A stretch of 64,000 bases of DNA from Clostridia bacterium (GCA_045638525.1 JAZUBQ010000001.1:68438-132437); one strand, 5' to 3'. Numbered from the stretch's first letter, positions 40,003 to 63,921 are shown. A program made the numbers and translations. Notes: a model not told the origin generated them from the sequence alone.

Positions 40003-43000
40003 TTAGTTTGCAGGGATATCCATCATACGCATGGTTCTCCAGGTGGGATATTCGCTGATAGTATTGAGTACGGTTTTGTCTTCCAAACCTGCTTCCGCCA
40101 TAATTCTCTGTGCTGTGGTGGACCAGGTGGATACTCTGTAGGAATTACCTTTTAAGGCAACATCCTTGGTGCTGGTTCCGTTGGTGCCAAAAATTTTAGC
40201 AGGGTCACGGCCGTCAGTATGATTGTAACCGGCAAAACAGTTATTGATATTTACAAGTTGTCTTGCAAAGAACCAATATTCGCTACTATTGTCATAAGCC
40301 CCGGTTACCACGTTATCACAAACGTTGGTATAACCGGTACCCTGGTCAAAGTAGATACCGGGAGCTTTGATCTGACCCGGATCGATTACATAGTTATCGT
40401 TAATCTGAGTTCCGCGGAGATTACCTAAGGTGTAGATGTGTGCACCGTCACCCATGGTCTGCATTACATTGTCAATCTTGTTGTAGGAGATGTTGTGATT
40501 ACCGCAGTCAACGGGATCATCATATCCCCAACCCCAACCAACAACAATACCGGAATAAGAGGTATCTTTAATATCGTTGTGGTGAATGTTTGCATTGCCC
40601 ACATAATATACGGAAATTGCAGTTAAGCCCTGGAATTCCTGAGCTGTACGGCGGAAAATGTTGTTGTCAATTTCAATATTTTTACAACGCTCAGTGGAAG
40701 CAGCTGCGGAGTTACCGTCTCTGTAGTCACCGAGTACAACGCCGGTTCCTGCAATATCGTGGAAATAGCTACCGGAAATCTGAGAGTTGGAAACGCCTTC
40801 TTCAAAGATCAGGGCGCTAGATCCCATAGATGCAAATTCACAGTTTTTAAATACCAAAGAATCTGCATATTTTGCCACGATCTGTGCAGGGAACATATGC
40901 TGACCGTAGTAGGTTTCACCGCCTAATCTCCATTCGTCGGTCTGGTTGAATGCTGCACCTTTTACGGTAAAGTCGTCATATCCGCCATAACGGAAGGAAA
41001 TTCCATCAAATTCTAAGTTGGTAACTTTGTTATTACTGCCAACACCGGTGATATTCATCATACCGTCGGTTACTGCGCACCAGGTTTCAACGGTTGCCAT
41101 ATTTTCCTCGGCGTAGGGATAGTAGTACATTTTGCGAGCTTCTTTATCGAAGTAGAACTCACCAGGTTTATCTAACAGTAAGAGAGAGTTTTCGATATAG
41201 AATGATGCGCCTTGATCAGGAGTAATGGTAGATGTGTGTAAACCGGGGATACAGAATGCATTATAATAGGGGTAAGTGGTATAAACGTATGCATTGCTGC
41301 CGCTGTATTCGATTCTGTCTAAGGGGAAACGGTGATTTGCCCACTGCAGGCTGAATACAATCTGCATTCTGGAAGCCTGAACTTCGGTCTGCTGGTCTAA
41401 ACCTTTTGGGAAGTCTTTATTGCCACCGGAAAGGGACAACAGAATACCGTCAGTTACATGAGAATCATTTTTCTTTTCAGCAGGATCCATCAGTGCACCG
41501 GAGAACAGATTTTCAGTTCTTGCCATAGTTGCCTGATAGCCGTTTACAAACAGTGCTCTGGTTTCACGGGTAGAGGTAGATGCTACATAGTAGTTCTTGC
41601 CATCTACCTTGCTCCATTTACCGGTTAAGTCTTCACCGCCGGAGAGAACAGGTTTATTATTCTTATCTTCTGCACGGATGATAACTTTGTGACCGTTTTT
41701 ACCACTCATGGTGGGGTCGATTTCAATCGCAACGGAGCTTTTGTAAGTACCGGGAGCAACATTGATGATGATGTCGCCGGTCATATCAGCATTGATGGTT
41801 TTTACAATTTTCAGTGCATTTGCCAGGTTGTTTACGGGAGCTTCCTTGGTACCTGCATTGGTAGATTTACCGGTAGTTGCAACATAAATTTCGCGGTAAG
41901 GGGTGCCGTAAACTTCTTTTGCATAGGGAGCTGCTTCTGCCAAATCAGCCATTGCCAGAACTTTCAGAGTGCAACCTGCAGAAAGTTCAGTGAACGCTGC
42001 ACTTGCCAATCCGCCTTCTCTTGTCATAGGACTGATTGCTACCAGTTTGTTGCCGCTATAAACTGCAGCAATTAAGGTAACCTCGGAAGGAATGTTGATA
42101 CAATCCATAGACACATATGCGGTGCCTTCGGGCAACTCGCTAACTTCCTGACCGGAAGCATTCTTCACGATCACGGTGGGATCTACGATACATTCGTTGT
42201 AAGCTTCCAGCATTTCGGCTGCAGTTTCGTAGTTTTTACCAACCATATTCCAGAAGGACATGGGTGCATATACGTGATTTACAGTGTCTGCATTCACGTC
42301 GATGTTTGCAGCTTCGCCGTATTTTTCCAGAAGATCAAATGCACCTTCCGCGGTGGTAATATCTTTGAAATCGTGAATCAGATGATAATACATAGAATTT
42401 GTGTCTTCCAACACGATAGAATCAAAATAGAAGGTATCGCAGTAGAACACAAATTTTAAGGTGTGAGTACCTGCATCCAGGTGGAGCTGTGCTACTTCTT
42501 CCTGCTGGTATGCCCAGGTGGTTCCGCTTCTGTCATTATCAAAATGCATGGTAGCGTAATCCACTAAGGTATTATCCACATACAAGTCAAAGTTTACATC
42601 TTTCCAAGCAGCACCCACCATATTCAGATTGTAAACAGTTTCCTGCGCCACATCTAAGGTGTAAGCTGCTTCGGTGTACATATCGGTCATTTTCAGACCG
42701 TTTTTGCCGTTGTAGGTAGCTTGTTCGGTTAATGCGGTGGAAACGGAATCTTCCGCTTCAATTACGGTGTATAAGTTGGCGTTGGAAACGTCGGGAAGGA
42801 TGGGAGCGGGAGTTGCAGTCGGAGCTGCATTGCTGCTTCCGCTGAAGACTTTCAAGTTTTGTAAGTTCATCTGGGGACCCCAAGTTTCGTGGTCTGCCAG
42901 ACCGTCTTCCCCATCAGTCATGGAAAGACGAAGCGCAGTTACGGTTGCGATGGAAGAACCGGTATTTTTGATGGTGATCAGGTTCTTGCCTTCTCTTACA

Positions 43001-45804
43001 TATAAGAATTCCATATCCAATCTGTCGGCATCTGCCCAACAGAAGGAACCGCTGCTTACAGGTTTGTAAACTTCTGCATAGAAGCCGGTATCGGAGGTAA
43101 TTTCAAAGGTGTTTTCCACACCGTCTAACACACCCAGGTAGGGATATACGATACCTGCACCGTCTTTCGACATAGTTAATTCATAGGTAACCGCTGCGCC
43201 GGGAGACAGATTTATAAACTTACCGACATCATTATTGGTACCGGTCTGATAGGAGCCGTCCGCTTCCACAAAATTGTGAATATCGGTAACAGAAACGTGC
43301 TGTCTGCCATATGCAGTAAATGCAGTTTCAATTTTGGAAAGATGATTCATGCCGAATGCATCTAATTCATTGAAGGTAATATCTGCAGATAAATCAGAGG
43401 TGCTCAGGTTGTTCACGCCTTTAATCATATACAGATATTTTACAATACCGCTACCGGATAAGGTTACGGTAGAACCGGTTTCGTTGATTAAGGTTACCGC
43501 TTTGTCGGAAGCCACACGATAGATACCTGCGCTGGGTGCTTCATAAGTGATGGTGCCAACCGGAGCGAAGGTTGCAGTGGGAGGAGCGGTAGGAGTGGGA
43601 AGATCTACTTCCAGGGTTTTTAAGTTTTTCAGGTTAACCTGGGGACCCCATACTGCATGATCTTTGATTGCGGTTTCTGCAGTTTTAGACAGACGCAAGG
43701 AACCGATGAGTGCAGCATTGGAACCGGTATTGGTGATGGTAATCTGGTTTACGCCTTCTCTTACATACAAGAATTCCATATCTTGCTGTTTGGAACCGTC
43801 TTTCCAACAGGTAGTCTGCCAACCGGTAGTATCTTTAGTAATTTCTGCATAGAAGCCGGTATCAGACGAAATGGTGAAGGTATGCTGAAGGTCATCCTGA
43901 ACATTCAGGTACGGATAAACAATACCTGCACCGGTAGCACCTACAGTTGCATTTACAGTAACAGATGCGCCGGATTCCAGAGACATCAGGCTGCTAATAG
44001 CCTGCGTATGATCTACTGCGTAGCATACAGAGGGAGTAGAAATCTGATCAATATATGCCAGACCATTATCTTCTATGTTCGTAAAGGTTACGTTTGCATT
44101 TTTGTTGGTAGTTTGAATTTTATTTACACCTGCAATTAAGTAGATGTATTTGGTTTCGTTTGCTGCTAATGCTGCAACGGAACCGGTTTCACTGGTCAAA
44201 GTAACCGCTTTGTCGGAAGTTACTTTATGTACACCTGCATAAAGAGAAGTGTAGGTAACATAGTCTGCAGCAGGAGTGGGAACAGGAGTCGGAGTCGGTG
44301 TGGGAGTCGGTGTGGGAGTTGCCTCGGGTTCATCCGAATATTCAACCACTTTCAGCTCAGTCATTTTCATCTGAGGATCCCAAGCTGAGTTGCCAACCAG
44401 TTCCCCTGCACTGTGAACTGCAATGGTATACAGTGTGGTAGCGGTGGAACCGTTGTTTTTAATGGTGATTACATTTTCACCTTTTCTTACATACGCCATT
44501 TCGGGATCGGTTTTCGCCAGATCTTTCCAAGCCCAGGAACCACCATTGGTTGCCGGGGAATAGAAGATATCCGCATAATAACCGGTATCAAAGGTAACTC
44601 TTAAGGTACCTTCTGCCGTATTGTTCATAGTAGCGATGTAAGGATATACGATACCATTCATTCCTTTGGAAGGAGTGTAGGTAGCGGTATAGACTTCTCC
44701 GGGAGCCAGCGTTTTTAAAATCGCTACCGCAACTTTATCTTCCTGGCCGGAGATAATGGGTTCTTTAGGAATATTCACCTGGTTGAAATAAGCTTTACCG
44801 TTGTCTTCTAATGCGGTAAAGGTTAAAACAGCGTTTTCATCGGTGGTTTCGATGGTGTTCACACCTGCGATTAAGTAGATGTATTTGGTTGCGCCTGCAG
44901 TTAATGCTGCCACGGAACCGGTTTCGTTGGTTAAGGTAACCGCTTTGTTGGAAGAAACTGCATACACACCTGCGTATTCCGCTTCGTAGGTAACGGTGAG
45001 CACTTCAGGAGTCGGTTCGGGAGTTGGTTCCGGAGTGAGGCTATAGGGAACAACCTTCAAGGATGCCATATTCATCTGGTCTTTCCAGTAATCAGCTGTC
45101 GCTAAAACACCGGTAGTACGAATTCCAACAGAATACAGCGTAACAGAGGAACTACCGATATTTTCAATGGTAATTTCCTGTTTTCCGTCTCTTACATAGA
45201 GCATTTCAGGATCCTGACGAGCTGCATCTGCCCATGCAGAAGAGCTATAATTATAAGCAAGATAAATGTCTGCATAGTAACCGGTATCAGTGGTCACTCT
45301 AACGGAATTACCTGCACCGGATGCGGGAGCAATGTAGGGATATACAAGGCCTGCATCGATTACACCCGGAGTATAGGTTGCGGTGTGTTTTGCACCGGGA
45401 GCCAAAGTCACATAACTAAAGCCTGCAACCGTATCGCCGGTATCACCGGGAAGAATGGGTTCTTCGGTCATAGCAACTTTGTTGATATAATCCAAACCAT
45501 TGCCGTCTAATGCGGTAAAGGTTAAGGTCGCTGATGCAACGCTCTTGGTAATGTTGTTATTCCCTTTAATCAGGTAGAAGTAATCAGCAATACCTGCTTT
45601 TAAGGTAACAGTATGTCCGGTTTCGTTGGTCAAGGTAACTGCTTTGTTGGAAGTTACCTGATACACACCTGCATAAGGTGCATCGGTGTACGAGATGGTT
45701 TCACCTGCTGCAGAGGCAGTCAGTTGTACGAGGGATACTACCATACTGCTTAAAACTGCGCAAACCAAAAGGAAAGAAATCAGTTTTTTGAAACTTGTTT
45801 TCAT
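40003..45804 (-). CDS. Giant secreted protein P1 (1933 aa): 4 type-B modules, CBM6/35-like module, helical plus Ig-like module, C-terminal right-handed beta-helix domain
   Basis: A signal peptide ends in LTASAAG. Four repeats of about 220-250 aa each begin ..Y.(D/E)APYAGVY.V.S.KAVTL.NETGS and are separated by PEPTPEPTPE, PTPTPTPTPTPVPTP and PTPTAPPTAT linkers. The beta-helix motifs include NIFRRTAQEF and HHNDIKDTSYSGIVVGWGWGY. Confidence 0.75.
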   Translation of the reverse strand: MKTSFKKLISFLLVCAVLSSMVVSLVQLTASAAGETISYTDAPYAGVYQVTSNKAVTLTNETGHTVTLKAGIADYFYLIKGNNNITKSVASATLTFTALDGNGLDYINKVAMTEEPILPGDTGDTVAGFSYVTLAPGAKHTATYTPGVIDAGLVYPYIAPASGAGNSVRVTTDTGYYADIYLAYNYSSSAWADAARQDPEMLYVRDGKQEITIENIGSSSVTLYSVGIRTTGVLATADYWKDQMNMASLKVVPYSLTPEPTPEPTPEVLTVTYEAEYAGVYAVSSNKAVTLTNETGSVAALTAGATKYIYLIAGVNTIETTDENAVLTFTALEDNGKAYFNQVNIPKEPIISGQEDKVAVAILKTLAPGEVYTATYTPSKGMNGIVYPYIATMNNTAEGTLRVTFDTGYYADIFYSPATNGGSWAWKDLAKTDPEMAYVRKGENVITIKNNGSTATTLYTIAVHSAGELVGNSAWDPQMKMTELKVVEYSDEPEATPTPTPTPTPTPVPTPAADYVTYTSLYAGVHKVTSDKAVTLTSETGSVAALAANETKYIYLIAGVNKIQTTNKNANVTFTNIEDNGLAYIDQISTPSVCYAVDHTQAISSLMSLESGASVTVNATVGATGAGIVYPYLNVQDDLQHTFTISSDTGFYAEITKDTTGWQTTCWKDGSKQQDMEFLYVREGVNQITITNTGSNAALIGSLRLSKTAETAIKDHAVWGPQVNLKNLKTLEVDLPTPTAPPTATFAPVGTITYEAPSAGIYRVASDKAVTLINETGSTVTLSGSGIVKYLYMIKGVNNLSTSDLSADITFNELDAFGMNHLSKIETAFTAYGRQHVSVTDIHNFVEADGSYQTGTNNDVGKFINLSPGAAVTYELTMSKDGAGIVYPYLGVLDGVENTFEITSDTGFYAEVYKPVSSGSFCWADADRLDMEFLYVREGKNLITIKNTGSSIATVTALRLSMTDGEDGLADHETWGPQMNLQNLKVFSGSSNAAPTATPAPILPDVSNANLYTVIEAEDSVSTALTEQATYNGKNGLKMTDMYTEAAYTLDVAQETVYNLNMVGAAWKDVNFDLYVDNTLVDYATMHFDNDRSGTTWAYQQEEVAQLHLDAGTHTLKFVFYCDTFYFDSIVLEDTNSMYYHLIHDFKDITTAEGAFDLLEKYGEAANIDVNADTVNHVYAPMSFWNMVGKNYETAAEMLEAYNECIVDPTVIVKNASGQEVSELPEGTAYVSMDCINIPSEVTLIAAVYSGNKLVAISPMTREGGLASAAFTELSAGCTLKVLAMADLAEAAPYAKEVYGTPYREIYVATTGKSTNAGTKEAPVNNLANALKIVKTINADMTGDIIINVAPGTYKSSVAIEIDPTMSGKNGHKVIIRAEDKNNKPVLSGGEDLTGKWSKVDGKNYYVASTSTRETRALFVNGYQATMARTENLFSGALMDPAEKKNDSHVTDGILLSLSGGNKDFPKGLDQQTEVQASRMQIVFSLQWANHRFPLDRIEYSGSNAYVYTTYPYYNAFCIPGLHTSTITPDQGASFYIENSLLLLDKPGEFYFDKEARKMYYYPYAEENMATVETWCAVTDGMMNITGVGSNNKVTNLEFDGISFRYGGYDDFTVKGAAFNQTDEWRLGGETYYGQHMFPAQIVAKYADSLVFKNCEFASMGSSALIFEEGVSNSQISGSYFHDIAGTGVVLGDYRDGNSAAASTERCKNIEIDNNIFRRTAQEFQGLTAISVYYVGNANIHHNDIKDTSYSGIVVGWGWGYDDPVDCGNHNISYNKIDNVMQTMGDGAHIYTLGNLRGTQINDNYVIDPGQIKAPGIYFDQGTGYTNVCDNVVTGAYDNSSEYWFFARQLVNINNCFAGYNHTDGRDPAKIFGTNGTSTKDVALKGNSYRVSTWSTTAQRIMAEAGLEDKTVLNTISEYPTWRTMRMMDIPAN
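44268..44335 (-). repeat. (PT)n linker between type-B modules 2 and 3 of P1
   Basis: The translation reads EPEATPTPTPTPTPTPVPTPAA. The plus strand reads ggagtcggagtcggtgtgggagtcggtgtgggagtt. Confidence 0.85.
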
Positions 45805-45911
45805 TTGGTTGTCCTCCTTAAGTTGTAATGAATTTTTTGGGTCATATGAGGTTTTTATTTTATCTGTGATATGCCGCTTTTAAGGCATATCACAGAATAT
45901 TTTAAGTGAAA

Positions 45912-48900
45912 TTATTCGTCTGCGGGAACATCCAGCATACGCATGGTTCTCCAGGAAGGATAATAATCAACCGCTTCCACTTTTGCGGTGTCTTTTACGC
46001 CTGCTTCAGACATAATTCTCTGTGCAGATAAAGACCAGCTGGTCACGCTTACGTTGTTGTTTTCCATAGTTACACCGGAGCTGTCAAAACCGTAGGAACC
46101 GCCGGTGGAAGGCATTTTACCGTCAGTATGGTTATAAGAACCGTAACAATTGTCAATCTGAACATATCTTCTTGCAAACAGCCAACGGTCAGTGGTGGGT
46201 TTTGCGTCGGTGAACACGTTATCACTGAAGTAGAGATCCTGGGTTGCCTGGTCAAGGTACAGACCGCCTCTTAAGTGGTCACCCGGATCAATAAAGTAGT
46301 TATCGTTAATCTGGTTGTTGCCCTGCAAACCAACGGTGTAAATCTGAGAACCGTCATACATAGTCTGCATTACATCCTGGATTTTATTGTAAGATATTAC
46401 GTTATTTCCGCAATCTTCGGGAAGTGCTGCTCCCCAACCCCAACCAACGGTAATGGCGGTGTAGGGCATATCAGCGATATCGTTGTGATGCACTTTGGAA
46501 TTACCGGTGTAATACATCGCGATGGCGGTGGTTCCTAAATATTCCTGTGCACAACGGCGGAAAATATTGTTGTCCACTTCAATCTGAGTGGAACGCTGTT
46601 TGGAAGCATCCATAGACTTATCGTGTTTAAAGCTTCCGATTACCACGCCGGTACCGGAAATATCGTGGAAGGAGCTTTCGGTCACACGACAGTTGGTGTC
46701 TCCTTCTTCAAAGAGTACCGCACTGGAACCCAGACAAGCAAATTCGCAATTTTTAAATACCACATTGTCTGCATAAGTTACAGTTACCTGAGCAGGGAAC
46801 ATATAGCTTCCGTACCAGATGGCGTCACCTACACGCAGTTCGTCTGCCTGGTTAAATGCCGCACCCTGAGTGGTGGCTTCATCCCAAGCACCGTAACGGA
46901 AGGAAATTCCGTCAAATTCGATGTTGGAAACTTTGTTGGTTGCGTTAACACCGTTGATGGTCATCAAACCATCTGTAATTGCACAGTAAGTTTCTGCGGT
47001 CGTCATATCCTCATTTGCATAGGGATAGTAATACATTTTGCGGTTGGTGTTATCGAAATAGAATTCACCGGGTGCATCCAGCAGGTCCATGGAATTTTCC
47101 AAGTAGAAAGAACCGGTGGGCTGAATGGTGCTGGTGGTAGCATCGTCATCTAAGAACACGTGATATCTGGGATACGGAATGTAGATGTATGCGTGTTCAT
47201 AACCGTAGTAATCACCATAGGTAACTTTTTCTACAGGGAAACGATGGTTTGCCCAGTTTTTCTGGAATACTACCTGCAATCTGGTATCATCGCCCAGCGT
47301 TCTGGGGAAGTTGGTATCCCATCTTTCGATGTCTACCACAAAACCATCTGCGATATGCAGGTCATTCTGGGGATTTTCAGGTACGATAAAGTCTTTTCCG
47401 GTATACCAAACATCACTTCTTGCTAAGGTTGCCTGATAGCCGTTAACATATAATGCTCTGGTTTCACGGGTGGTGGTAGTAGCTACCCAGTAGTTCTTAC
47501 CGGAAACTTTTGACCATTTTCCGGTTAAGGGTTCACCACCGGAGAGAACCGGCTGATTGTCCGGGTCTTGGGCTTTGATGATTACTTTATAACCGTTCAT
47601 ACCGCCCATGGTGGAATCAATCGCCAAGGTCACATTACTGCGGTATACACCGGGAGCAACGTGTACCACAATGTCACCGGTCATAGCAGAATTATAGGAT
47701 TTTACTTTGGTTAACGCCTGTGCAACACTTGCTAAGGGAGTTTCGGGAGTTAATCCATCATTGGAGGATTTTCCGTTGGTTGCAACATAAATATCTTTAT
47801 AAACGCCGGTAGAAGAATAGGGCTTTGCTTCCGCCAGATCGGAGAACACCATAATTTTCACTTTACTCTGTGCGGTTAAGTTTGTTAAATTACAGGTAAC
47901 GGTGGTGGAAGTGCTCTTTAAGGTGTTTAAGTTGCCAACCATCTGATTGCCTTTGTATTCTGCCACAACGACGGTGGAGTTTGCAGGCATATCAGCGGTT
48001 TTAATCACCAGTCTTGCAGAGCCTTCGGGCAATACGCTGACAAGCGAATTGGAACCATTGTATAACTTCACGGTTGGGCTTGTGGTTTCATTGGCGATAA
48101 TATCGTTGTATGCCAGAAGCATATCGTCCAAAGAATCGAAATCCTTACCAACCATCGGCCAGAAGGACAATTCCGGATAGAATAAATCGGAAGTGTCATT
48201 TTCCACATTGATATCAATCAAAGCACCACATTCTTTTAAAATGTTGTAAGCTTCGATCGATGTGGTGGCATCTTTGAAGCCATAAAGCAGGTGATAGGTT
48301 CTGCTGCTGGTATTTTCCAGTCGGAATGCATCAAAGTAGAACTCATCACAGAAATAGACAAAGCTGATAGTATGTGTGCCTGCAGTTAAATTTAAGGAAT
48401 AAATTTTTTCATTCTGCATGGGATAGGAAGATGAACTCTTCGGCACATTAAAATGCATGGTTTCATAAGACAGCGTGACACCATCTACGACAATTTCAAC
48501 GGAAACGTCCTTCCATGCAGCACCTCTGAAATACAGGTTATACAACCCGTTATCGGGAACAGAAACGGTGTAGGTAGAAACAGATTCTGAGGTAGCTTTG
48601 ATAACATCTGCACCATCATAAGTGGTATGGGAAATACCGGTTGTGGGAGTGCAGCTTTCTGCTTCGATTGTAATCATATACTCAGAATCGGTAATATTCG
48701 GAGTAGGAGTCGGAGTGGGAGTGGGTTTTGCAGTGGGAACAGGAGTGGGAGCATTGGTAGGAACAGGGGTTGCTACCGGAATGTCTGCAAGCTCTTTCAC
48801 AAACTGCATATACTCGGTGGAATCGTAGGGTGCTTTATCCAGACGACCGAAGTCGGTTTCGGATAACATTACCGCATAGGTTCCGATGTTTTCAATGATA

Positions 48901-50474: not shown

Positions 50475-50551
50475 GGGTTAGTCCTCCTTCAAACGATAAC
50501 GTTTGTTTCATAGTACCGGACAAGAGATTAGTAGGTCCGGCCGAATTCTGT

Positions 50552-55791: not shown

Positions 55792-58700
55792 TTAGAATAC
55801 GGGTTTTAAGCCGTCGAAGTTATCCCAAACAAATACTTTGATAACGTCGCCGTCTTCGGGGATGTAGTCATATAAAGTAGCTTCCACAGGAACATAAGAA
55901 CCGGTAGCTTCTTCATAGTCTAAGTAGCCTTCACCCATCATGTATAACTGATCACCTGCGTAAACTGCAACCAGTACGGTGGTGCCAACTTCGTTCCAGT
56001 CACCAACCTGAACGGTGTAAACCAGGTTACCGGTACCATCGTCAGCAACGGCAATCATATCTTTTGCAAAGTTGTATGCGTATTTAATATCTTCGTAGGT
56101 TTCGTACGCACCGTTTTCCAACATTGCACAGTTTAATAATGCATTGTATGCATATTCAGGATAAATGAAGTCAGTTTCAACATCTGCACCGAGGTCATCA
56201 GCCAATACATCTGCATATTCTTCCAAGATGTCAGCGATATCTTCGGTGGAGCCTGCTCCCTGCATAGCTGCCAACAGTAAGTCCTGACGAGTTACGGTGG
56301 TGAACTCGAAACCATGGAGGTGAGTTAACATCATAGAGTTGGAACCAACATCACCATTTTCGGTGAAGGTGAAGGTTAAGATGTAGTCACCTGCATCCAG
56401 GTATACTTTTTCTTCAGTTAAAGTAACGCTGTTGGACTGATCCTGGTTACCAAAATAAGGAGTCTGTCCATCGAATAAAACGATGTCATTCATGCCTGTT
56501 TTTGACAGGGTTACATTAATGGTAGCAGTCAACGGAACGGTACCGCTCATAATTAAACCATATTCACTGGAAGAAGGAATAGTTACTGCATACTGTTTTA
56601 CTTCGGTGTTTGCAGAAGAATCAGTAGTGCTTCCGATGTGAATCCCGTAGTAGTTATTTCTTACGGTGTATTGCGGAATGTCTTTTGCAGATTCGGGAGC
56701 ACCAACGAAGTTGTGACCCTGAACAAATAATCTGGGAAGCAGACCGGTGCTGTCTTCCAGATAGGAGAACAAGATTCTCTGTAAGTACATCCAGCCACCG
56801 CCCATATTCTGAACCCAAACAGAGTTTACGCCTTCTTCTAAGTAAATAGCGTCACCCATTACGGTTCTGTAGTTATCGGGGCTTGCAGGATGTTTTACGG
56901 TGGAGATAGAATTTTTGGTTTCTACATTAATGGTAGCTTCTGAGCCATAAACAGCTGCAGTAGTATAAACCTGATAGTAACCTGCAGTTGTTGCAGTTAC
57001 TTCAAATCTCTGCCAGCAGCCTGCCAGTAACTGACAACCGATAACACTACCGGTTACAGGAGTATCGGATGCATAAGAGTAGAAGTCGTAGTTTTTGCCA
57101 CCTTCGGTTAAGGTATCGGTGTAAGGATTGATTACTAAGTCAGCGGGAGGAGTTTTGGTTAAGTCATCCATGGTGATGGTTGCTTTTTCTTCTTCGCTTA
57201 ACAGTTTGAATTCTAAGTTCCACAGAACGTGGTGAGTACCACCTGCGGTAACAGAAACTTTGTTGATACCTTCTTTTAAGTATACATACTGGTATTCGCC
57301 GTTTGCATCGGTTGCTCTCCAAGCACCCCAGTCATCAACGTTAGAGGTAGCCAACTGTGCACGGTAACCTTCATCACCGTCGGTATCGATGGTAACAACG
57401 GGGAACACAGGACCAACGGTACCACCGATTTTTGCCTGTACTCTATAGATACCGGGGAATGCACATCTTACATCATAGGTCATGGAAGAACCAGCGTACT
57501 GAACAACTGCTTCGTATGCACCATACTGATAGAAACCGCTGTCGTTGGTTCTGTCGGTGTATACTCTGGGAACTAAATCGATGGGCGCTTCGGGAGCGTC
57601 GTTTACGTTTTTGTTCTGATTTAAATAATCTTCAGAATTGTTTAACTGATAGAAGGTTGCGTTTACAAATTCAACGTCACCGGTAGCTTTGATTACGTTA
57701 TCGCCTTCTGCTAAATAGATGTAAGCAGGAGTGAAATCAGAATAATCAAAGGTTACATAGTCTAATGCTTCGGTGGTTAAAGTTAAAGTGTTGCCGTCTG
57801 CTACATCAGCGTATACTAAGTACATGCCTGCTGCAGGAGCGGTTACAGTGTAATTTACCCAAACATCGTCTAAATCAATACCATTTTCGGTATAGGGGAT
57901 GGGCATAATGTATTCATTGTAGTTTAAAGCGCCGATGGTGCCATCGTAGCCTGCGAAACCTGCAAATTCGTCAACCATACCGTTCCAGCCTTCAGGATCA
58001 ACACCTGCAGGATTTTCAGCAGTGCCAACGTACTGCAGTAAGCTCATAGAATCGGTAATTTTACCGAAGTCATTGTTTTCGTAGGTTGCACCGTATCTGC
58101 CAACGTTGGAAATGGTGATTTCGTTTGCACCTGCCTGCAGGTAAATCAAATCGTCACCATTGAAGCCGTTAGAGTTGGACCAGGTGGTAACCCAGGTACC
58201 GCGGTTGGGGATTTTATGCTGAGAATAGTAAGGCACACCGTTAACGATGTTTTCCATCTGTAAGGTGGTTGCACCTTCTGCAGAAGATGCTTTTACCTGT
58301 GCACCGTAAACACCTTCTTCTGCAACAGTTACAGTATAGGTTACGGCAGCACCGGGTGCTAAATAAACAGCATTTGCCTGACCTTTGTTGGGGATAGAGG
58401 TAGAACCTTCGGTTCCCCAGTCAGTACCGAATAATTCAGTACCTTCGTCAGAAGACATATTCATGGAGTATGCATCAATATAGAGTGCATCTGCATCAAA
58501 GTTTACGTCGGGATGATTTTCAACCACGCCGTCCCATCCTTCAGGGAAGTACGGCTTAGCAGTCGGTTCGGGAGTCGGTTCGGGAGTCGGTTCGGGAGTG
58601 GGAACTACCAAATCGTCTGCTAATTTTACTAAAGGTAAAAAGTCTAAGGATTTTTCTGCGCTGGTTGCATTTAAAGCACCAAAGTCGATGGAGCTAATAC

Positions 58701-59199
58701 CACCGTTATTGCTACCAACCAGCTGATATTTCAGCACGTTGATACCTTCTTTTAAGTACATGGGCTGGTCCTGTTTACAACCGGAAGACCAGCTGGTTGC
58801 GGTGATTTTGTATTCTGCCGCATAGCCTTCGTCACTGGTTACATGCATTACAAAGGGGAAACCATTTGTCCATTCGGTTTTCAGCTGCATTGCATATACG
58901 CCGGTATAAGGCATATCAACAACGATGTACGCCCAGTCGCCTGTTACCATGTTGAACGTACCGTTTGCACCCCAGGGATCGTCTGAGGATGCCTGATAGT
59001 CAACGCCTGCTTCAGCAGCGTCGCCGTTGCGGATTGCTGCTTTGATGTTTTCTACGGTTGAAACATAGGTACCATTCTGATAGGTCGCAGGCAGATCTTT
59101 GAATGCGCCCGGCCAGGAGGGAGCTGCGTTAACACTGATTGCACTTACCATTGACAGTAACATGCACAGTGCTAAACAAACACTTACAATTTTTTTCAT
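55792..59199 (-). CDS. Giant secreted protein P4 (1135 aa): 1 type-A module plus a roughly 920-aa multi-beta-sandwich tail shared with P5; no beta-helix
   Basis: The signal peptide ends in AISVNA. The type-A module is followed by a PTPEPTPEPTPEPT linker. The tail begins YFPEGWDGVVENHPD and ends VFVWDNFDGLKPVF. Confidence 0.75.
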   Translation of the reverse strand: MKKIVSVCLALCMLLSMVSAISVNAAPSWPGAFKDLPATYQNGTYVSTVENIKAAIRNGDAAEAGVDYQASSDDPWGANGTFNMVTGDWAYIVVDMPYTGVYAMQLKTEWTNGFPFVMHVTSDEGYAAEYKITATSWSSGCKQDQPMYLKEGINVLKYQLVGSNNGGISSIDFGALNATSAEKSLDFLPLVKLADDLVVPTPEPTPEPTPEPTAKPYFPEGWDGVVENHPDVNFDADALYIDAYSMNMSSDEGTELFGTDWGTEGSTSIPNKGQANAVYLAPGAAVTYTVTVAEEGVYGAQVKASSAEGATTLQMENIVNGVPYYSQHKIPNRGTWVTTWSNSNGFNGDDLIYLQAGANEITISNVGRYGATYENNDFGKITDSMSLLQYVGTAENPAGVDPEGWNGMVDEFAGFAGYDGTIGALNYNEYIMPIPYTENGIDLDDVWVNYTVTAPAAGMYLVYADVADGNTLTLTTEALDYVTFDYSDFTPAYIYLAEGDNVIKATGDVEFVNATFYQLNNSEDYLNQNKNVNDAPEAPIDLVPRVYTDRTNDSGFYQYGAYEAVVQYAGSSMTYDVRCAFPGIYRVQAKIGGTVGPVFPVVTIDTDGDEGYRAQLATSNVDDWGAWRATDANGEYQYVYLKEGINKVSVTAGGTHHVLWNLEFKLLSEEEKATITMDDLTKTPPADLVINPYTDTLTEGGKNYDFYSYASDTPVTGSVIGCQLLAGCWQRFEVTATTAGYYQVYTTAAVYGSEATINVETKNSISTVKHPASPDNYRTVMGDAIYLEEGVNSVWVQNMGGGWMYLQRILFSYLEDSTGLLPRLFVQGHNFVGAPESAKDIPQYTVRNNYYGIHIGSTTDSSANTEVKQYAVTIPSSSEYGLIMSGTVPLTATINVTLSKTGMNDIVLFDGQTPYFGNQDQSNSVTLTEEKVYLDAGDYILTFTFTENGDVGSNSMMLTHLHGFEFTTVTRQDLLLAAMQGAGSTEDIADILEEYADVLADDLGADVETDFIYPEYAYNALLNCAMLENGAYETYEDIKYAYNFAKDMIAVADDGTGNLVYTVQVGDWNEVGTTVLVAVYAGDQLYMMGEGYLDYEEATGSYVPVEATLYDYIPEDGDVIKVFVWDNFDGLKPVF
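58561..58608 (-). repeat. Three perfect 12-nt units agtcggttcggg (plus one degenerate unit) encoding PTPEPTPEPTPEPT in P4
   Basis: Read directly from the sequence. The same 12-mer family occurs in P5 (63111-63183) and P1 (45002-45040). Confidence 0.9.
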
Positions 59200-59604
59200 A
59201 ACTTTGATGTCCTTTCTTTTTTTGATATTATATTATTTTTTTTCAAAAAAGAAAATATGAGAACATCGTAAAAGCTGTAACACTCTGGTTGTAAAAAAGC
59301 ATTGTTGATACTTTGTTCATCTTTACGATTATTTCATGTTTCCAAATGAAATTTCAGAGTGGTCCCGGCAGAGGAAATCCTCTGCCGGAGCCTTTTTTTA
59401 GTTTTTAAGCCGTTTTCTTTCAATCGGGTGCAAGAAAACAGATACAATTTTTTGACATTTGCACCATTTCCTATAGTGCCAAAAATCAAACTATATTTTG
59501 CAAACCGAACACCCGATGGGTGGTAATATTCCCGAAGGCGTACCGTTATGCTGCATGCAATGCTACGTCGAGTGATGAGGTTTGCGAAATAGAGGAAGAT
59601 TTTT

Positions 59605-62600
59605 TTAGAATACGGGTTTTAAGCCGTCGAAGTTATCCCAAACGAATACTTTAATGGTATCGCCTGTTTCAGGAATGTAGTCATATAAAGCAGCTTCCAC
59701 GGGAACATAAACACCGTTAGCTTCTTCATAGTCTAAGTAGCCTTCGCCCATCATGTACAGCTGACCATTTTCTGCGTAAACAGCAACCAGTACAGTGGTG
59801 CCAACTTCATTCCAGTCACCAACCTGAACGGTGTATACCAAGTTACCTGCTCCGTCGTCAGCAGCTACGATCATGTTTTTCGCAAAGTCATATGCGTATT
59901 TAACATCTTCGTAGGTTTCGTATGCGCCGTTTTCCAGCATTGCACAGTTTAACAGTGCATTGTATGCATATTCAGGGTAGATAAAGTCAGTATCGGGAGT
60001 TACGGTGATGTCAGAAGTTAATACATCTCTGTATTCTTCTAATGCAGCTTTAACATCTTCAGTAGTTGCTACAGCCTGCATAGCAGCTAAGAACATATCC
60101 TGACGAGTTAAGGTAGTGAATTCAAAGCTGTGAATGTGATTCATCAGAATGGATTCAGAACCTGCGTCTGCATTTTCGGTTAATTCGAAGATCATGGTGT
60201 ATTCACCAGCTTCTAAGTAGGTTTTTTCTTCAGTGATGGTTACGCTGGAAGCTTCATTTTCGTTACCGAAGTAGGGCAGTTCGCCGTCTACCATAACGAA
60301 ATCTTCAGAACCGTTGGTTAAAGTGATTTTAACTGTGGGAGTCAGCGGAACGGTACCGGTCATAATGATACCATATTCAGCATTTGCGGGGATGGTTACA
60401 TTGTAGGTATAAGTTAAAGTATTAGCGGTTGCATCAGTAGTGTTTGCTACGTGGATACCCATGTAGTTGTTTCTTACGGTATATTCGGGAACCTGAGTTA
60501 AATCATCAGATGCACCGATGTAATCAAAGCCCTGAATAAATACGCCGGGTACGATTGCAGAAGTATCTTCAACATATGTTAAAGAAACAGATTTCAAGAA
60601 TACCCAACCGGGACCATCACAACGAACCCAAACGGAGTTTACACCTTCTTTTAAGGTGATGTAGCTACCGGTAGATTCTTTGTAGAATGCAGCAGCGGTA
60701 TCGTATTTGGTGGTTCCTTTGGAGTCGATGGTTTCTACAGAAATCACAACACCATCATCGCCGGTAACATATGCCATAGTGCTGATCTGGTAAGTACCTG
60801 CTACTTTTGCATCCACTTCAAATCTCTGCCATTCGCCGGACAGCAACTGAGTACCGTGACCTTCACCAATGGGAGGAGTATCCTGGCTGTAGAAGTGGTA
60901 GTCAAAGCCCATACCGTTTGCAGTTAAGGTATCGGTATAAGGACTAATGGTAATCGGTCTGGGAGGAGTCAGTTTACAATCATCAATGGTGATGGTTGCT
61001 TTTTCTTCTTCGGTCAACAGACAGAAGTTCAAGCTCCACAGTTCGTGGTGAGTGGAACCAGCGGTAACTTCTACATGGTTGATACCTTCAGTTAAGTATA
61101 CATACTGGAATGCACCGTCAGCATCGGTATTTACCCAGATGGGAGAAGGAGCGTTGGTTGCTAACAGCTGTGCACGATAACCGTCATCGCCATTGGTGTC
61201 GATGGTAATAGTGGGATATTGGTCACCGGTAGTGCCGCCAACAGTACCGCCGATTCTTGCAGCAACTCGGTAGATACCGGGGAATAAAACGTTTACATCG
61301 TAAGCAACTTTGGAACCGCCACCCTGAACGATAGCAGCGCCTTCGGTGTCATACTGATACTGATACCAGTAACCTTCAGAAGCACTCATATCTTTCATCG
61401 GATTGATTTCGATTTCAAAAGCTTCTTCCGGTAAGAATGTGCTGTTTTGTCTCTGAGATTCATATTCTTCAGAGTTGTTTAACTGATAGAAGGTAGCAGA
61501 AGTGAATTCAGAGCCGGATTTACCGGTTACGGTAACAACGTTGTCACCTTCTTCTAAGTAAATGTACTGTACAGGAGCACCGGTAGAAGTAAAGTCTACA
61601 TAGTCACCGGTTGCAGTTTCTAAATGTACATTACCTAAAGTTTCAGCTTCTACCAGATACATACCTGCTTCAGGAGCAGAAACAGTGTAGTTAACCCATA
61701 AATCATCAGCAAAAGTTACGCCGTTTTCGCTGTAAGGCAGATAGTATTCTAAAGTATTATAAACATTAGGTACAGATTGAACACCGTAGGTCCAGGGATT
61801 GATATCCGGATTCCAGTCGGGCCAGCCAACTAAAGAACCGGTCCAACCTTCAGGATTGGTACCATCAGGATTTTCCACAGTACCAACATACTGGAAGTAA
61901 TCGTCAGTGTTTTCTAAGGGTAAAATGTCGAATTCATAGAAGAGAACACCGCCGGGACCTGCATTGTATACAGTGATTTCATTGGTGCCTTCCAGCAGAT
62001 AAATGAAGTCGTCACAGTAGGTGTTGTAAGACCATTCTTTACCCCAACCACGAGGTGCGATATTATGCTGAGTAATATAATCTACGCCGTCAACATTGTT
62101 AATCAGCTGCAGAGCAGAAGAAGCGTAGCTAGCCTGACCGTAACGTACTAAAGAAGCATAAGTTCCGGTATAAGGAATGTTTTCTAAAGTATAAGTTAAA
62201 GAAGAACCTGCGGGTAAGAAGATTGCATCTTCATAACCTTTGTTTAATACGTCGCCGGTTTCGCCTTCAAATCCCCAGTCAGTACCCAGTAATTCCATAC
62301 CGTCGTCAGAAGACATGTTGGGAGCGAATGCGTCAATGTAGAGAGCGTCTGCATTGTCGTTATAGTCGGGATGATTTTCAACAACACCGTCCCAACCTTC
62401 AGGGAAATAGCCGTAGTCAACGGTTTCATATTCGCCGTTGTATACTTTTAAGTTTGCTAAATTCAGAGCGGTACCCCAGGTTGCATGGTCTTTTAATTCG
62501 CCAACACTGTGTAATTTAATGTTGGTGATGAAAACGGTGCCTTCACCGATATTTTCTAAAGTAATAACGTTGGAACCGTTTCTTACATACAGCATTTCTA

Positions 62601-63921
62601 AGTCGGTCTGAGCTGCATCAGTCCAAGCCATATGGTTGGTTTCGCCGGCACCTCTGTAGATGTCTGCATAGAAACCGGTATCAGCAATTACACGGATGGT
62701 AGTTGCATCTGCACCGGCAAAGCTCATGTAAGGATATACCAGACCTGCTTTGCCCTGGAAGGGAGTGTAGGAGAAGGTATATTTTGCACCGGGAGCCAGT
62801 TCATAACCTAAGTTGGTGTAGATAGCATCTTCCTGACCGGAGATTACTGCTGCACCGGTATCTTCGATTTCTGCGATGTAATCTAAACCGTTGTTTTCTA
62901 AAGCGGTAAAGGTTACGTTTGCGGAAGCATCGGTAGTTGCAATCTCATTTTTGCCTCTTACTAAGTAGATGTAGCCGGTTTCGCCTGCTGCTAAAGCAAC
63001 TTTAGAACCGGTTTCGTTTTCGATTACTACGTCTGCATCAGCGGTTACTTCGTAAACACCTGCTGCATCCGCTTTGTAAGAGAAAGTATCATTGTAGATA
63101 TTGGGAGTTGCGGTCGGCTCGGGAGTGGGTTCCGGAGTCGGTTCGGGAGTCGGCTCGGGAGTCGGTTCCGGAGTCGGTTCAGGATTTAAGTCAGCGTAAG
63201 TCATTACTGCTAACTGATCTACAGTAATGTCAGATCTGTATTCACCAACAGAGTGAATGTTGATGTTTGTTAATACACCGGTATTCTGACCCATATTGGT
63301 AATGGTGATTTCCTGAGAACCACCTCTTACATATAACAGGGCTACAACTGCGTGTGCAGCATCAGACCAAGCTAAGGTGCTTGCGTAACCGGGATTTTTG
63401 TAAATAGTGGTTTTGAAACCGGTATCAGTAGTGATCAAGTAGGTATTTTCTACAGTATCAGAGAAATAGATGTAGGGATACACGATACCGTTTTTACCTG
63501 CAGAAGGATTGTAGGTAAAGGTGTAGGATTCACCGGGTGCCATAGATTTGTATAAACCTGCAACAACCGAATCTTCCTGACCGAAAATAACGGGAGAGTT
63601 AGGAATGTTTACCTGACCCAGGTAATCCATACCGTTGTCATCTAAATCAGTGATGGTTAATGCAGCACCATTGGTGATGTCTACATTGTTTGCACCTTTT
63701 ACCAGGTACATATAACCGGTCTGACCTGCTGCTAATTCGGTAACAGAACCGATTTCGGTAGTAATAGTAGTTGCTTTGTTTGCTGTTACAGCATATACAC
63801 CTGCATAGGGTGCATCGTTGTAATCAACAGTTTCGCCAGCCGCGCTTACGAATGTAAACTGACTGAACATACAGCTTAACATCATTACGAGTGCTAAGCA
63901 AATGCTAAGAGTTTTTTTCAT
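59605..63921 (-). CDS. Giant secreted protein P5 (1438 aa): 2 type-B modules plus the same roughly 920-aa tail as P4
   Basis: The signal peptide ends in FTFVSA. The two type-B modules are separated by a (PEPT)6 linker. The tail begins YFPEGWDGVVENHPD and ends VFVWDNFDGLKPVF. Confidence 0.75.
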   Translation of the reverse strand: MKKTLSICLALVMMLSCMFSQFTFVSAAGETVDYNDAPYAGVYAVTANKATTITTEIGSVTELAAGQTGYMYLVKGANNVDITNGAALTITDLDDNGMDYLGQVNIPNSPVIFGQEDSVVAGLYKSMAPGESYTFTYNPSAGKNGIVYPYIYFSDTVENTYLITTDTGFKTTIYKNPGYASTLAWSDAAHAVVALLYVRGGSQEITITNMGQNTGVLTNINIHSVGEYRSDITVDQLAVMTYADLNPEPTPEPTPEPTPEPTPEPTPEPTATPNIYNDTFSYKADAAGVYEVTADADVVIENETGSKVALAAGETGYIYLVRGKNEIATTDASANVTFTALENNGLDYIAEIEDTGAAVISGQEDAIYTNLGYELAPGAKYTFSYTPFQGKAGLVYPYMSFAGADATTIRVIADTGFYADIYRGAGETNHMAWTDAAQTDLEMLYVRNGSNVITLENIGEGTVFITNIKLHSVGELKDHATWGTALNLANLKVYNGEYETVDYGYFPEGWDGVVENHPDYNDNADALYIDAFAPNMSSDDGMELLGTDWGFEGETGDVLNKGYEDAIFLPAGSSLTYTLENIPYTGTYASLVRYGQASYASSALQLINNVDGVDYITQHNIAPRGWGKEWSYNTYCDDFIYLLEGTNEITVYNAGPGGVLFYEFDILPLENTDDYFQYVGTVENPDGTNPEGWTGSLVGWPDWNPDINPWTYGVQSVPNVYNTLEYYLPYSENGVTFADDLWVNYTVSAPEAGMYLVEAETLGNVHLETATGDYVDFTSTGAPVQYIYLEEGDNVVTVTGKSGSEFTSATFYQLNNSEEYESQRQNSTFLPEEAFEIEINPMKDMSASEGYWYQYQYDTEGAAIVQGGGSKVAYDVNVLFPGIYRVAARIGGTVGGTTGDQYPTITIDTNGDDGYRAQLLATNAPSPIWVNTDADGAFQYVYLTEGINHVEVTAGSTHHELWSLNFCLLTEEEKATITIDDCKLTPPRPITISPYTDTLTANGMGFDYHFYSQDTPPIGEGHGTQLLSGEWQRFEVDAKVAGTYQISTMAYVTGDDGVVISVETIDSKGTTKYDTAAAFYKESTGSYITLKEGVNSVWVRCDGPGWVFLKSVSLTYVEDTSAIVPGVFIQGFDYIGASDDLTQVPEYTVRNNYMGIHVANTTDATANTLTYTYNVTIPANAEYGIIMTGTVPLTPTVKITLTNGSEDFVMVDGELPYFGNENEASSVTITEEKTYLEAGEYTMIFELTENADAGSESILMNHIHSFEFTTLTRQDMFLAAMQAVATTEDVKAALEEYRDVLTSDITVTPDTDFIYPEYAYNALLNCAMLENGAYETYEDVKYAYDFAKNMIVAADDGAGNLVYTVQVGDWNEVGTTVLVAVYAENGQLYMMGEGYLDYEEANGVYVPVEAALYDYIPETGDTIKVFVWDNFDGLKPVF
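63111..63183 (-). repeat. Six tandem 12-nt units (plus-strand gagtcggttcgg and variants) encoding (PEPT)n in P5
   Basis: Read directly from the sequence: cggtcggctcgg gagtgggttccg gagtcggttcgg gagtcggctcgg gagtcggttccg gagtcggttcag. Confidence 0.9.

Follow-up and report, generated by a model that had tools for sequence, protein, structure and literature searches.

A tandem array of predicted GH141 glycoside hydrolases and non-catalytic paralogs in a probable Gram-positive-type polysaccharide-utilisation locus of uncultured Clostridia

Polysaccharide-utilisation loci (PULs) of Gram-positive bacteria combine an ABC importer and a lipoprotein binding protein with secreted multi-modular glycoside hydrolases (GHs) and cytoplasmic exo-glycosidases. 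Family GH141 is polyspecific, and its characterised members include the exo-acting alpha-L-fucosidase BT_1002, the endo-xylanase Xyn141E and the Wf141 endo-fucanases. The catalytic aspartate pairs are D523/D564 in BT_1002 and D540/D577 in Xyn141E (PMC5593877, PMC12786026). The locus described here lies in a 64,000-nt stretch of a Clostridia bacterium genome (GCA_045638525.1 JAZUBQ010000001.1:68438-132437; hereafter the window) and contains five giant genes, P1 to P5 (Table 1). The region was judged to be, with fair probability, the enzyme core of a Gram-positive-type PUL in an uncultured ruminant-hindgut Clostridia lineage.

Table 1. Features of the array and of its downstream neighbours; positions are counted from the first nucleotide of the window.
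Feature	Position	Strand	Residues (aa)	Description
P1	40003..45804	(-)	1933	signal peptide - A x4 - C - D - GH141
P1 A modules (four)	42850..45708	(-)	33-985	joined by PT/PE linkers
P1 C module	42400..42792	(-)	1005-1135	CBM6-like
P1 D domain	41905..42399	(-)	1136-1300	helical half and beta half; accessory domain of GH141 subfamily
P1 GH141 beta-helix	40006..41904	(-)	1301-1933	matches 5mqp (BT_1002); Pfam GH141_M and Beta_helix
P1 predicted catalytic Asp pair	40447-40449; 40345-40347	(-)	Asp1786; Asp1820
P2	45912..50474	(-)	1520	TTG start; signal peptide - B x3 - C - D - GH141
P2 B modules (three)	48792..50390	(-)	29-561	divergent CBM6/35 superfamily; APYTGVY.MQ-type motif
P2 GH141 domain	45915..47804	(-)	891-1520
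P2 predicted catalytic Asp pair	46353-46355; 46251-46253	(-)	Asp1374; Asp1408
P3	50552..55408	(-)	1618	signal peptide - X - B - 64-aa PT linker - A - C - D - GH141
P3 GH141 domain	50555..52435	(-)	992-1618	Pfam
P3 predicted catalytic Asp pair	51002-51004; 50900-50902	(-)	Asp1469; Asp1503
Spacer P4/P3	55409..55791	(-)		383 nt, after P4 and before P3; hairpin related to that of spacer P5/P4
P4	55792..59199	(-)	1135	non-catalytic; signal peptide - B - E1 - A-like (E2/E3) - E4 - E5 - F
P4 F domain	55795..56322	(-)	960-1135	D homolog at C-terminus
Spacer P5/P4	59200..59604	(-)		405 nt, after P5 and before P4; GC hairpin 59365-59388
P5	59605..63921	(-)	1438	non-catalytic; signal peptide - A x2 - E1 - A-like (E2/E3) - E4 - E5 - F
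P5 F domain	59608..60138	(-)	1262-1438
N1	36643..39822	(-)	1059	secreted, SLH-anchored (Pfam SLH 2.1e-21)
N2	33854..36646	(-)	930	signal peptide; 4-nt overlap with N1; conserved partner
GH89	31464..33641	(-)		alpha-N-acetylglucosaminidase; no signal peptide, probably cytoplasmic

The first-pass annotation had described five consecutive minus-strand paralogs built of beta-sandwich-like modules, with Pro/Thr(/Glu) linkers and a mixture of short and long spacers. The lengths and coordinates of the five reading frames were all verified (22,947 nt, 35.9% of the window), the linkers were found in the array proteins, and the spacers measured 107, 77, 383 and 405 nt, the two longest of which had sequence blocks in common. 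The description as five paralogs held for their relatedness on one scaffold, but not for their equivalence, because three are GH141 enzymes and two are non-catalytic. Nor did the beta-sandwich description apply to the last ~630 aa of P1, P2 and P3, which form a GH141 beta-helix catalytic domain instead. Residues 1305-1835 of P1 and 894-1447 of P2 matched BT_1002 (5mqp) at E 1.2e-42 and E 1.5e-35, respectively, over an aligned length of ~530-550 aa, and the corresponding domain of P3 was 55-56% identical to those of P1 and P2. The Pfam model GH141_M scored 36.6 (P1), 34.2 (P2) and 40.5 bits (P3) against a curated cutoff of 27. The aspartate pair equivalent to D523/D564 of BT_1002, mapped by HMMER alignment to that protein and by matching spacing, was kept in 3/3 proteins. 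Family membership thus identifies P1, P2 and P3 as predicted GH141 glycoside hydrolases, with an architecture of signal peptide, variable CBM6/35-superfamily modules, a CBM6-like C module, a D domain and the GH141 beta-helix.

P4 and P5 contained no GH141 domain and gave no Pfam or PDB match, and both end at the F domain, at the point where GH141 would begin; since they stop there without a catalytic domain, they are not members of the family. D and F were homologous (hhalign probability 93%, E 2.7e-7), and 10/10 distant proteins in which D was complete were GH141 enzymes, most of them with recognised CBM6/35 modules. On these two grounds, P4 and P5 are read from their sequences as GH141-less derivatives, that is, as paralogs of the GH141 enzymes that share the same scaffold minus the catalytic domain. 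The beta half of F (F-beta) was the most conserved module, with 82-90% identity across orthologs and paralogs, and was common to the array proteins and to BspA-LRR surface proteins. F-beta is a candidate anchoring or docking domain.

Two other explanations of the array and its beta-helix domains were considered. Right-handed beta-helices also occur in polysaccharide lyases, and faint Pel9A-like_beta_helix matches appear in the precomputed annotations of relatives, so that the domains might be lyases or inactive binding domains and the array a purely binding or lyase system. This is very improbable given the full-length match to the GH141 founder, the GH141_M scores above threshold and the conservation of both essential aspartates in all three paralogs. 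That the array is an assembly artefact caused by repeat collapse or expansion, which the first-pass annotation had named as a ground for discarding its finding, or a set of decaying pseudogenes, is hardly credible. The architecture is repetitive, and the 12-nt linker units, which are the only tandem DNA repeats (<=72 nt), could be misassembled in copy number. However, the paralogs were 23-56% identical in protein sequence, the longest DNA repeats had identities of 88% (163 nt) and 83% (271 nt), 5/5 frames were open across 1135-1933 codons, and orthologous arrays with the same gene order recurred in metagenome-assembled genomes (MAGs) from separate studies, deposited at NCBI, ENA and JGI.

The N-terminal regions of the five proteins comprised about 26 module cores of types A, B, X, E and C. 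The signature noted earlier (APYTGVY.MQ, QDQP.Y, G.N.I and DFGRLD) was carried by B-type modules, with three copies in P2 and others in P3 and P4. A profile of B, E1, X and N1 cores matched solved CBM6/35 structures (8zvk, E 1.6e-13; 5x7o, 5.9e-11; 2cdo, 5.4e-7; 2vzp, 2.5e-4), and the C profile matched the CBM35 of 5x7g at E 4.6e-4. Modules A, B, X and E1-E5 gave no Pfam family match above the curated cutoff, CBM models included, and C scored 27.2 bits against CBM_6, just below the cutoff of 28.9. Both parts of the first-pass opinion were thus borne out, namely that the modules resemble CBM6/35 (at profile level, E 1.6e-13 to 5e-7) and that none can be assigned to a named family. The B/E1/X and C modules are accordingly related to CBM6/CBM35 at superfamily level only, and their carbohydrate binding is a prediction. 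In an AF2 model (pLDDT 95.9), the A module consisted of a small beta-sandwich lobe and a CBM6/35-like jelly-roll lobe. Foldseek returned partial matches to SGBP-B, CBM35 and CBM6 (probability 1.0) and found no close whole-module neighbour of A in the PDB (TM <=0.35).

The A copies of P1 were 39-52% identical to one another. Module positions were in general 73-91% identical across species, while copies inside one protein were only 37-54% identical, which argues for distinct, maintained specificities. Module type and number were shuffled among paralogs and among species. A modules also occurred on alkaline phosphatases and SGNH esterases, a distribution as compatible with a general role in targeting or retention as with substrate binding.

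Each of the five proteins carried a predicted signal peptide, as first noted, called from hydropathy and motif only: 5/5 had one N-terminal hydrophobic segment with Lys/Arg before it and an AxA-like site after it. The Sec pathway would export all five. The absence of a recognisable anchor (SLH, LPXTG, lipobox or C-terminal transmembrane segment) was likewise upheld for P1-P5: the motif and hydropathy scan detected no second hydrophobic 19-mer, lipobox or C-terminal LPXTG, and Pfam assigned none of them an SLH, dockerin or cohesin domain or any further anchor family. An SLH domain was present only in the neighbour N1, whose N-terminus contained two CBM6/35-like cores of the same type as the array modules and whose position immediately downstream of the array was kept in relatives. 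N2 had no family match. In relatives, N1-N2-GH89 lay downstream of the array, with GH89 found repeatedly near array genes; directly upstream lay GH123 (-), a pair of ABC permeases, a lipobox lipoprotein and a GH141-CBM6-SLH protein. Secreted GHs lay beside the ABC importer and lipoprotein in three relatives (L001, L002 and L026). The transporter is known only from relatives, as the window stops 79 nt upstream of P5. GH89 and GH123 both lacked a signal peptide, and no dedicated transcriptional regulator was seen in the stretches read. The array family was restricted to an uncultured Clostridia clade of ruminant hindguts, with 3-4 tandem paralogous GH141 enzymes and 1-2 non-catalytic paralogs across loci.

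The locus is predicted to be an extracellular glycan-binding and glycan-processing system, in agreement with the first-pass view. In the proposed mechanism, the divergent CBM-like modules would recognise separate epitopes on a single complex polymeric glycan and keep the GH141 domains on it, and P4 and P5 might act in non-catalytic glycan capture, by analogy with surface glycan-binding proteins. Released oligosaccharides would be taken up via the ABC transporter and lipoprotein encoded beside the array in relatives, after which the cytoplasmic enzymes GH89 (alpha-GlcNAc) and GH123 (beta-GalNAc) would trim them. The SLH proteins (N1, and GH141-SLH in relatives) would form the wall-bound part of the system. 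Trimming by GH89 and GH123 suggests that the target is a glycan of host or microbial origin that contains amino sugars rather than plain plant xylan, although the substrate assignment is a guess because GH141 is polyspecific.

The same modules could instead serve attachment, with P4, P5 and the CBM arrays of P1-P3 fixing cells to mucus, feed particles or other microbes and glycan breakdown being secondary. BspA-type LRR proteins, with which the array shares F-beta, are often annotated as adhesins, P4 and P5 are non-catalytic, and the habitat is the hindgut. A mainly adhesive or colonising role is nevertheless improbable, as the GH141 active-site residues are intact in 3/5 proteins and the tight linkage in relatives to an ABC importer and cytoplasmic exo-glycosidases indicates nutrient acquisition. 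Somewhat less remote, though still unlikely, is that some or all of the non-catalytic modules (the A/B/E arrays or F-beta) bind the cell's own wall polymer non-covalently, so that the five proteins are displayed on the surface and not released; the "missing anchor" would then be the modules themselves. The occurrence of A modules on unrelated secreted hydrolases of one lineage (GH141, alkaline phosphatase, SGNH esterase) and on catalytic-domain-free proteins resembles the behaviour of a general surface-targeting module, and the highly conserved F-beta occupies the extreme C-terminus of P4 and P5, as it does in the BspA-LRR protein encoded in the window and in many BspA-LRR surface proteins from elsewhere. 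A GT4-pyruvyltransferase for wall-polymer modification is encoded nearby, and there is a precedent in the CBM35 of CsxA, which binds the wall polysaccharide of its producer (Montanier 2009, as cited in PMC11002231). Against surface retention, the locus already has SLH wall anchors (N1, and GH141-SLH in relatives), and the strongly diverged yet individually conserved module copies are unlike typical anchoring repeats. Moreover, D, the homolog of F, has an internal position in P1-P3 and accompanies the GH141 domain in many distant enzymes, a pattern suggestive of a role as an enzyme accessory, and the structure of F was poorly predicted (pLDDT 48).

The preferred reading, glycan utilisation, can be set against several described systems. 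The last ~630 aa of P1-P3 match BT_1002 (alpha-L-fucosidase, PDB 5MQP) along the full beta-helix, and as in Xyn141E (endo-xylanase, Acetivibrio thermocellus), GH141 is paired with CBM6-type modules. However, BT_1002 has no CBM and Xyn141E has one C-terminal CBM6 and a dockerin, whereas P1-P3 have 4-5 N-terminal CBM-like modules. P1-P3 also differ from these characterised members in carrying the D domain ahead of the beta-helix and in forming an array of 3-4 tandem paralogs with a mutual identity of just ~55%. B, E1 and X show the "G.Y ... YL.EG.N.I" core of CBM6/CBM35 (8zvk, 5x7o, 2cdo, 2y8k, 2vzp), and the C-lobe of A may have the same beta-jelly-roll fold, but A has an additional N-terminal beta-sandwich lobe. 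Like SGBP-B of Bacteroides thetaiotaomicron (PDB 7kwb), the top though weak structural match of A (TM 0.33), P4 and P5 lack a catalytic domain and consist of serial beta-sandwich modules of a glycan-binding type, in a probable glycan-utilisation locus; unlike SGBP-B, they are not lipoproteins, belong to a Gram-positive lineage and are descendants of GH141 enzymes that have lost the catalytic domain. In combining large multi-modular secreted enzymes, CBM-only proteins and wall-anchored proteins, the locus recalls the dockerin-cohesin assemblies known as cellulosomes and amylosomes. As the first-pass annotation had proposed, the array is not a cellulosome: Pfam detected no dockerin (PF00404) or cohesin in P1-P5, N1 or N2, and there was no evidence of a scaffoldin. 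The accompanying statement that it is not a classical PUL holds in that it is not of the Bacteroidetes Sus type, but the array of relatives has the known Gram-positive PUL layout, lying beside ABC permeases, a lipoprotein, an SLH-anchored GH141 and cytoplasmic GH123 and GH89. The array is probably a lineage-specific form of a known type of polysaccharide-degrading locus, not a novel type of system, and is set apart from other Gram-positive PULs by an unusual succession of 3-4 enzyme paralogs from a single, poorly known family together with 1-2 non-catalytic paralogs.

The five consecutive minus-strand genes P1 to P5 occupy 35.9% of the window, and the positions and lengths assigned to them in the first-pass annotation were reproduced exactly.

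Positions of the array genes, their neighbors, and other features in the window (SP, signal peptide; A, B, X, E1-E5, and C, CBM-like module types; D, domain preceding GH141; F, C-terminal domain of P4 and P5)
Feature	Position	Strand	Length (aa)	Architecture or description
P1	40003-45804	-	1933	SP-A-A-A-A-C-D-GH141
P2	45912-50474	-	1520	SP-B-B-B-C-D-GH141; TTG start
P3	50552-55408	-	1618	SP-X-B-(64-aa PT linker)-A-C-D-GH141
P4	55792-59199	-	1135	SP-B-E1-A'-E4-E5-F
P5	59605-63921	-	1438	SP-A-A-E1-A'-E4-E5-F
Spacer after P5	59200-59604			Common blocks; GC-rich hairpin
Spacer after P4	55409-55791			Common blocks; GC-rich hairpin
Spacer after P1	39823-40002			GC-rich hairpin
N1	36643-39822	-		Two array-type CBM-like cores, SLH repeats, weak Big_5 match under the Pfam cutoff
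N2	33854-36646	-	930	Signal peptide; 4-nt overlap with N1
GH89	31464-33641			No signal peptide
GT4-pyruvyltransferase	28812-31013	+	733	Single-protein fusion, CsaB-like polysaccharide pyruvyltransferase
Cell-wall cluster	24969-28776	+		MurT, GatD-like amidotransferase, FemAB-family transferase, DUF2344
FMN riboswitch	12852-13001	-		96.7 bits
Riboflavin S-component gene	12263-12844			ECF-type, directly downstream of the FMN riboswitch
Double ABC-ATPase/ECF S-component	8559-11021			Fused protein, after the 299-aa ORF
ORF	7687-8586		299	After BtuR/CobO
BtuR/CobO	7185-7697			Downstream of the cobalamin riboswitch
Cobalamin riboswitch	6795-7031	+		36.7 bits
BspA-type LRR_5 protein	1602-4097	-	831	Signal-peptide-like start; C-terminal F-beta (E = 6.5e-8)

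The C-termini of P1, P2, and P3 were predicted to be GH141 catalytic domains, which the first-pass annotation had overlooked. All three exceeded the Pfam cutoff for GH141_M and also matched Beta_helix, and the sequence of the founding GH141 member BT_1002 (PDB 5mqp) aligned over approximately 530-550 residues (P1, E = 1.2e-42; P2, E = 1.5e-35), including the beta-helix. Two aspartates are catalytically essential in BT_1002 (D523 and D564, equivalent to D540 and D577 of Xyn141E; PMC5593877, PMC12786026), and both are kept, by alignment, in P1 (1786/1820), P2 (1374/1408), and P3 (1469/1503); around other active-site residues, such as Q336 of BT_1002, the alignment was ambiguous. Every sequence-level criterion tested thus placed P1-P3 in GH141. 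This family is polyspecific, comprising an exo-alpha-L-fucosidase that acts on RG-II, an endo-beta-1,4-xylanase, and endo-fucanases (PMC12786026), and membership therefore does not reveal the substrate of P1-P3, whose catalytic domains share just 55-56% identity. GH141 contains more than 1000 sequences against only three known activities. Three to four diverged tandem paralogs kept in one lineage, each with its own conserved binding modules, would be a good source of new specificities.

At the N-terminus of all five proteins, basic residues precede a hydrophobic segment and an AxA-type site, and a scan of hydropathy and motifs, rather than a dedicated predictor, detected no second hydrophobic 19-mer, lipobox, or C-terminal LPXTG in any of them; the earlier calls of secreted proteins without an LPXTG, lipobox, or C-terminal transmembrane anchor, and of Pro/Thr/Glu linkers between modules, agree with these results. 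Assembly artefact, in the form of collapsed or expanded repeats, was ruled out. The paralogs share only 23-56% protein identity, the DNA repeats of 39800-64000 are at their longest 163 nt (88% identity) and 271 nt (83% identity), tandem repeats there are limited to 12-nt linker units that cover 72 nt or less, and orthologous arrays were found in MAGs from NCBI, ENA, and JGI. An exact look-up of the P4 protein returned no record. The GC content of 40001-64000 is 0.43-0.46 vs. 0.385-0.457 (mostly 0.39-0.43) in the remaining window, which probably reflects the Gly/Thr/Ala/Pro-rich composition of the array rather than a foreign origin.

Searching the window proteins iteratively with HMMs revealed that every A, B, X, and E module is built on one common core of approximately 110-130 aa, with about 26 cores in P1-P5 and two more at the N-terminus of N1, the SLH-anchored neighbor of the array. 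No A, B, X, or E module was recognized by Pfam, and the C module came nearest to a family (CBM_6, 27.2 bits, below the cutoff of 28.9). A profile of the B, E1, X, and N1 modules matched solved CBM6/CBM35 structures (8zvk, 1.6e-13; 5x7o, 5.9e-11; 2cdo, 5.4e-7; also 2y8k and 2vzp), and the C-module profile matched a CBM35 (E = 4.6e-4). The resemblance to CBM6/35 proposed earlier therefore stands at the superfamily level (E = 1.6e-13) and fails at the level of named families, the curated thresholds of which no module passes; the modules are divergent relatives outside these families. The A-module profile had no solved relative at the sequence level. In its predicted structure (35-sequence alignment; pLDDT 95.9, pTM 0.90), a small beta-sandwich at the N-terminus is followed by one helix and a jelly roll at the C-terminus; the N-terminal lobe is an addition relative to CBM6/CBM35. 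Foldseek returned only partial matches (TM ≤ 0.35) to SGBP-B, CBM35, and CBM6, so the whole A module is without a close solved neighbor. The A, B, and E modules may represent new CBM families or strongly divergent ones. In some A-A-A proteins of approximately 850 aa from relatives (P0016; L019 14771-17404), the A N-lobe exceeded the Pfam cutoff for SPP1_Dit, a beta-sandwich domain found at the C-terminus of a siphovirus tail component (29.6 bits vs. 25); this is a partial match, and none was seen on the A modules of the window.

P4 and P5 appear to be GH141-less derivatives of the same architecture, ending where the beta-helix would begin. The homology of their C-terminal domain F to D, the domain that separates C from GH141 in P1-P3, extends over 144 columns (hhalign probability 93%, E = 2.7e-7), and E5 weakly resembles C (probability 59%). 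An exhaustive D/F profile search of 1.84 billion representative proteins returned just 158 clusters at E ≤ 1e-3. Ten of the ten full-D proteins examined were GH141 enzymes, most with recognized CBM6/35 modules, which marks D as an accessory domain belonging to a subfamily of GH141. The beta half of F (F-beta, approximately 80 aa, motif IxAxYxGxxL...KVxVWDxLxxxxP) is the most conserved module, with 84-90% identity between P4 and P5 and 82-87% to orthologs, against 41-79% for the remaining P4/P5 modules. Recent gene conversion at the 3' ends was rejected; nucleotide identity peaks at only 0.84-0.89 and orthologs are equally conserved, which makes purifying selection the better reading. F-beta is covered by no Pfam model and also ends many BspA-LRR and other secreted proteins in other genomes; a protein of this type in the window carries it as well (table). 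Given this conservation and distribution, F-beta is a candidate domain for wall association or docking that would substitute for the missing anchor, a role that is inferred only, because the structure prediction of F (D+F alignment) reached a pLDDT of 48, too low for a fold search, with a helix-then-strand layout. Such a domain could account for the retention of many clostridial surface proteins that lack an anchor, BspA-LRR proteins among them.

True homologs of P5 numbered approximately 22 among 5.8 billion proteins. A genome scan for A modules, which used a six-sequence sub-alignment because the full alignment was too diverse, located them only in MAGs labeled "Clostridia bacterium", the samples of which came from water deer, roe deer, water buffalo, and similar sources. 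RecA placed these in a tight, all-uncultured clade (92-100% identity; next relatives ≤83%), labeled Ruminococcaceae/Oscillospiraceae in one record, and the locus is a handle on the nutrition of this wholly uncultured ruminant-hindgut clade. The order P3-like, P2-like, P1-like, N1 (SLH), N2, (GH89) was kept in four loci (L005, L006, L015, and L020), and gene and module numbers varied, as the first reading had suggested checking. P1 orthologs have four A modules or one, P3 orthologs are X-B-B or B-B-A, L026 contains four GH141 paralogs and a single P4-like gene, L001 and L002 each have one non-catalytic paralog against two in the window, and L008, L010, and L019 carry a solitary P5-like gene, with GH89 upstream in the former two. 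Module copies within a protein are 37-54% identical, whereas the same position across species is 73-91% identical, except for one A position (51-52%). This pattern argues for distinct, maintained specificities at the module positions.

The spacers are short between P3, P2, and P1 (77 and 107 nt) and long upstream of P3 and P4 (383 and 405 nt), as noted before. Together with AAGGAGGA ribosome-binding sites upstream of P1, P2, P3, and N1, this spacing suggests the transcription units P5, P4, and P3-P2-P1. The operon structure is only suggested, because a promoter scan scored no higher than shuffled sequence and the intergenic hairpins have no T tail on the coding strand. Blocks such as GTATCTGTTTTCTTGCACCC are common to the two long spacers, with no exact occurrence in relatives, and a GC-rich hairpin of the CCGGCAGAGG...CCTCTGCCGG type is present in three spacers. 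Rfam matched nothing in the array or spacers, and only the two riboswitches elsewhere in the window.

The GT4-pyruvyltransferase probably contributes to synthesis of the pyruvylated wall polymer to which SLH domains attach. In the adjacent cell-wall cluster, the FemAB and DUF2344 ORFs as listed overlap by approximately 230 nt, so the TTG start of DUF2344 was probably placed too far upstream. N2 lies behind the array in all syntenic relatives; searches of Pfam, NCBIfam, and the PDB with N2 and with a 628-aa lipoprotein of the relatives returned no match.

Relatives carry, ahead of the array, a GH123 that lacks a signal peptide, a pair of ABC permeases, the 628-aa lipoprotein with its lipobox LAAC, and a GH141-CBM6-SLH enzyme; the transporter is not visible here because the window stops 79 nt upstream of P5. 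With N1, N2, and GH89 downstream, the predicted layout is that of a Gram-positive polysaccharide-utilization locus, in which the array proteins would depolymerize a glycan outside the cell, the ABC importer would take up the products, and cytoplasmic enzymes would then trim these by exo action. The presence of an alpha-GlcNAc-ase (GH89) and a beta-GalNAc-ase (GH123) suggests that the glycan contains amino sugars and is of host or microbial origin. Alternatively, the A modules may be a general targeting device, directed to a complex substrate that combines glycosidic, phosphoester, and ester linkages or to the cell's own wall, since in the same genomes they are also part of giant alkaline phosphatase-(A)n-SGNH esterase proteins and of proteins without a known catalytic domain. 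The own-wall option has a precedent in the CBM35 of CsxA (Montanier 2009, as cited in PMC11002231), and we regard this alternative as unlikely. The giants (approximately 2200 aa; P0005-P0010; L009, L011-L013, L016, L018, L022, and L023) combine an N-terminal alkaline phosphatase, five A modules, and a C-terminal SGNH/GDSL esterase, an unusual fusion that may point to a target polymer bearing phosphate and acyl groups or to a common role in surface retention. In a more far-reaching reading, to which we assign a low probability, A would define a new carbohydrate-binding family with two lobes and serve as the common targeting device of the lineage on glycosidases, phosphatases, and esterases; F-beta would be an unrecognized C-terminal wall-association domain of clostridial surface proteins that BspA-LRR proteins also carry; and the three to four tandem GH141 paralogs would be enzymes with undescribed activities on an amino-sugar glycan that bears phosphate or acyl groups, for example mucin or a microbial wall polymer resembling teichoic acid.

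No paper in the literature searched described a GH141/GH89/GH123 array of this type, and none mentioned PDB 9rx2. What is new is the lineage-specific two-lobed A module, the module shuffling, the unannotated D/F domain, and the tandem expansion of an under-characterized GH family along with paralogs lacking the catalytic domain; the locus reveals no new kind of system. The earlier view that it was not a cellulosome holds, since neither dockerin nor cohesin was found. The view that it was not a classical PUL was half right; the array is no Sus-type PUL of the Bacteroidetes, but it would work like a Gram-positive PUL, with the importer, lipoprotein, SLH enzyme, and GH123 beside it in relatives.
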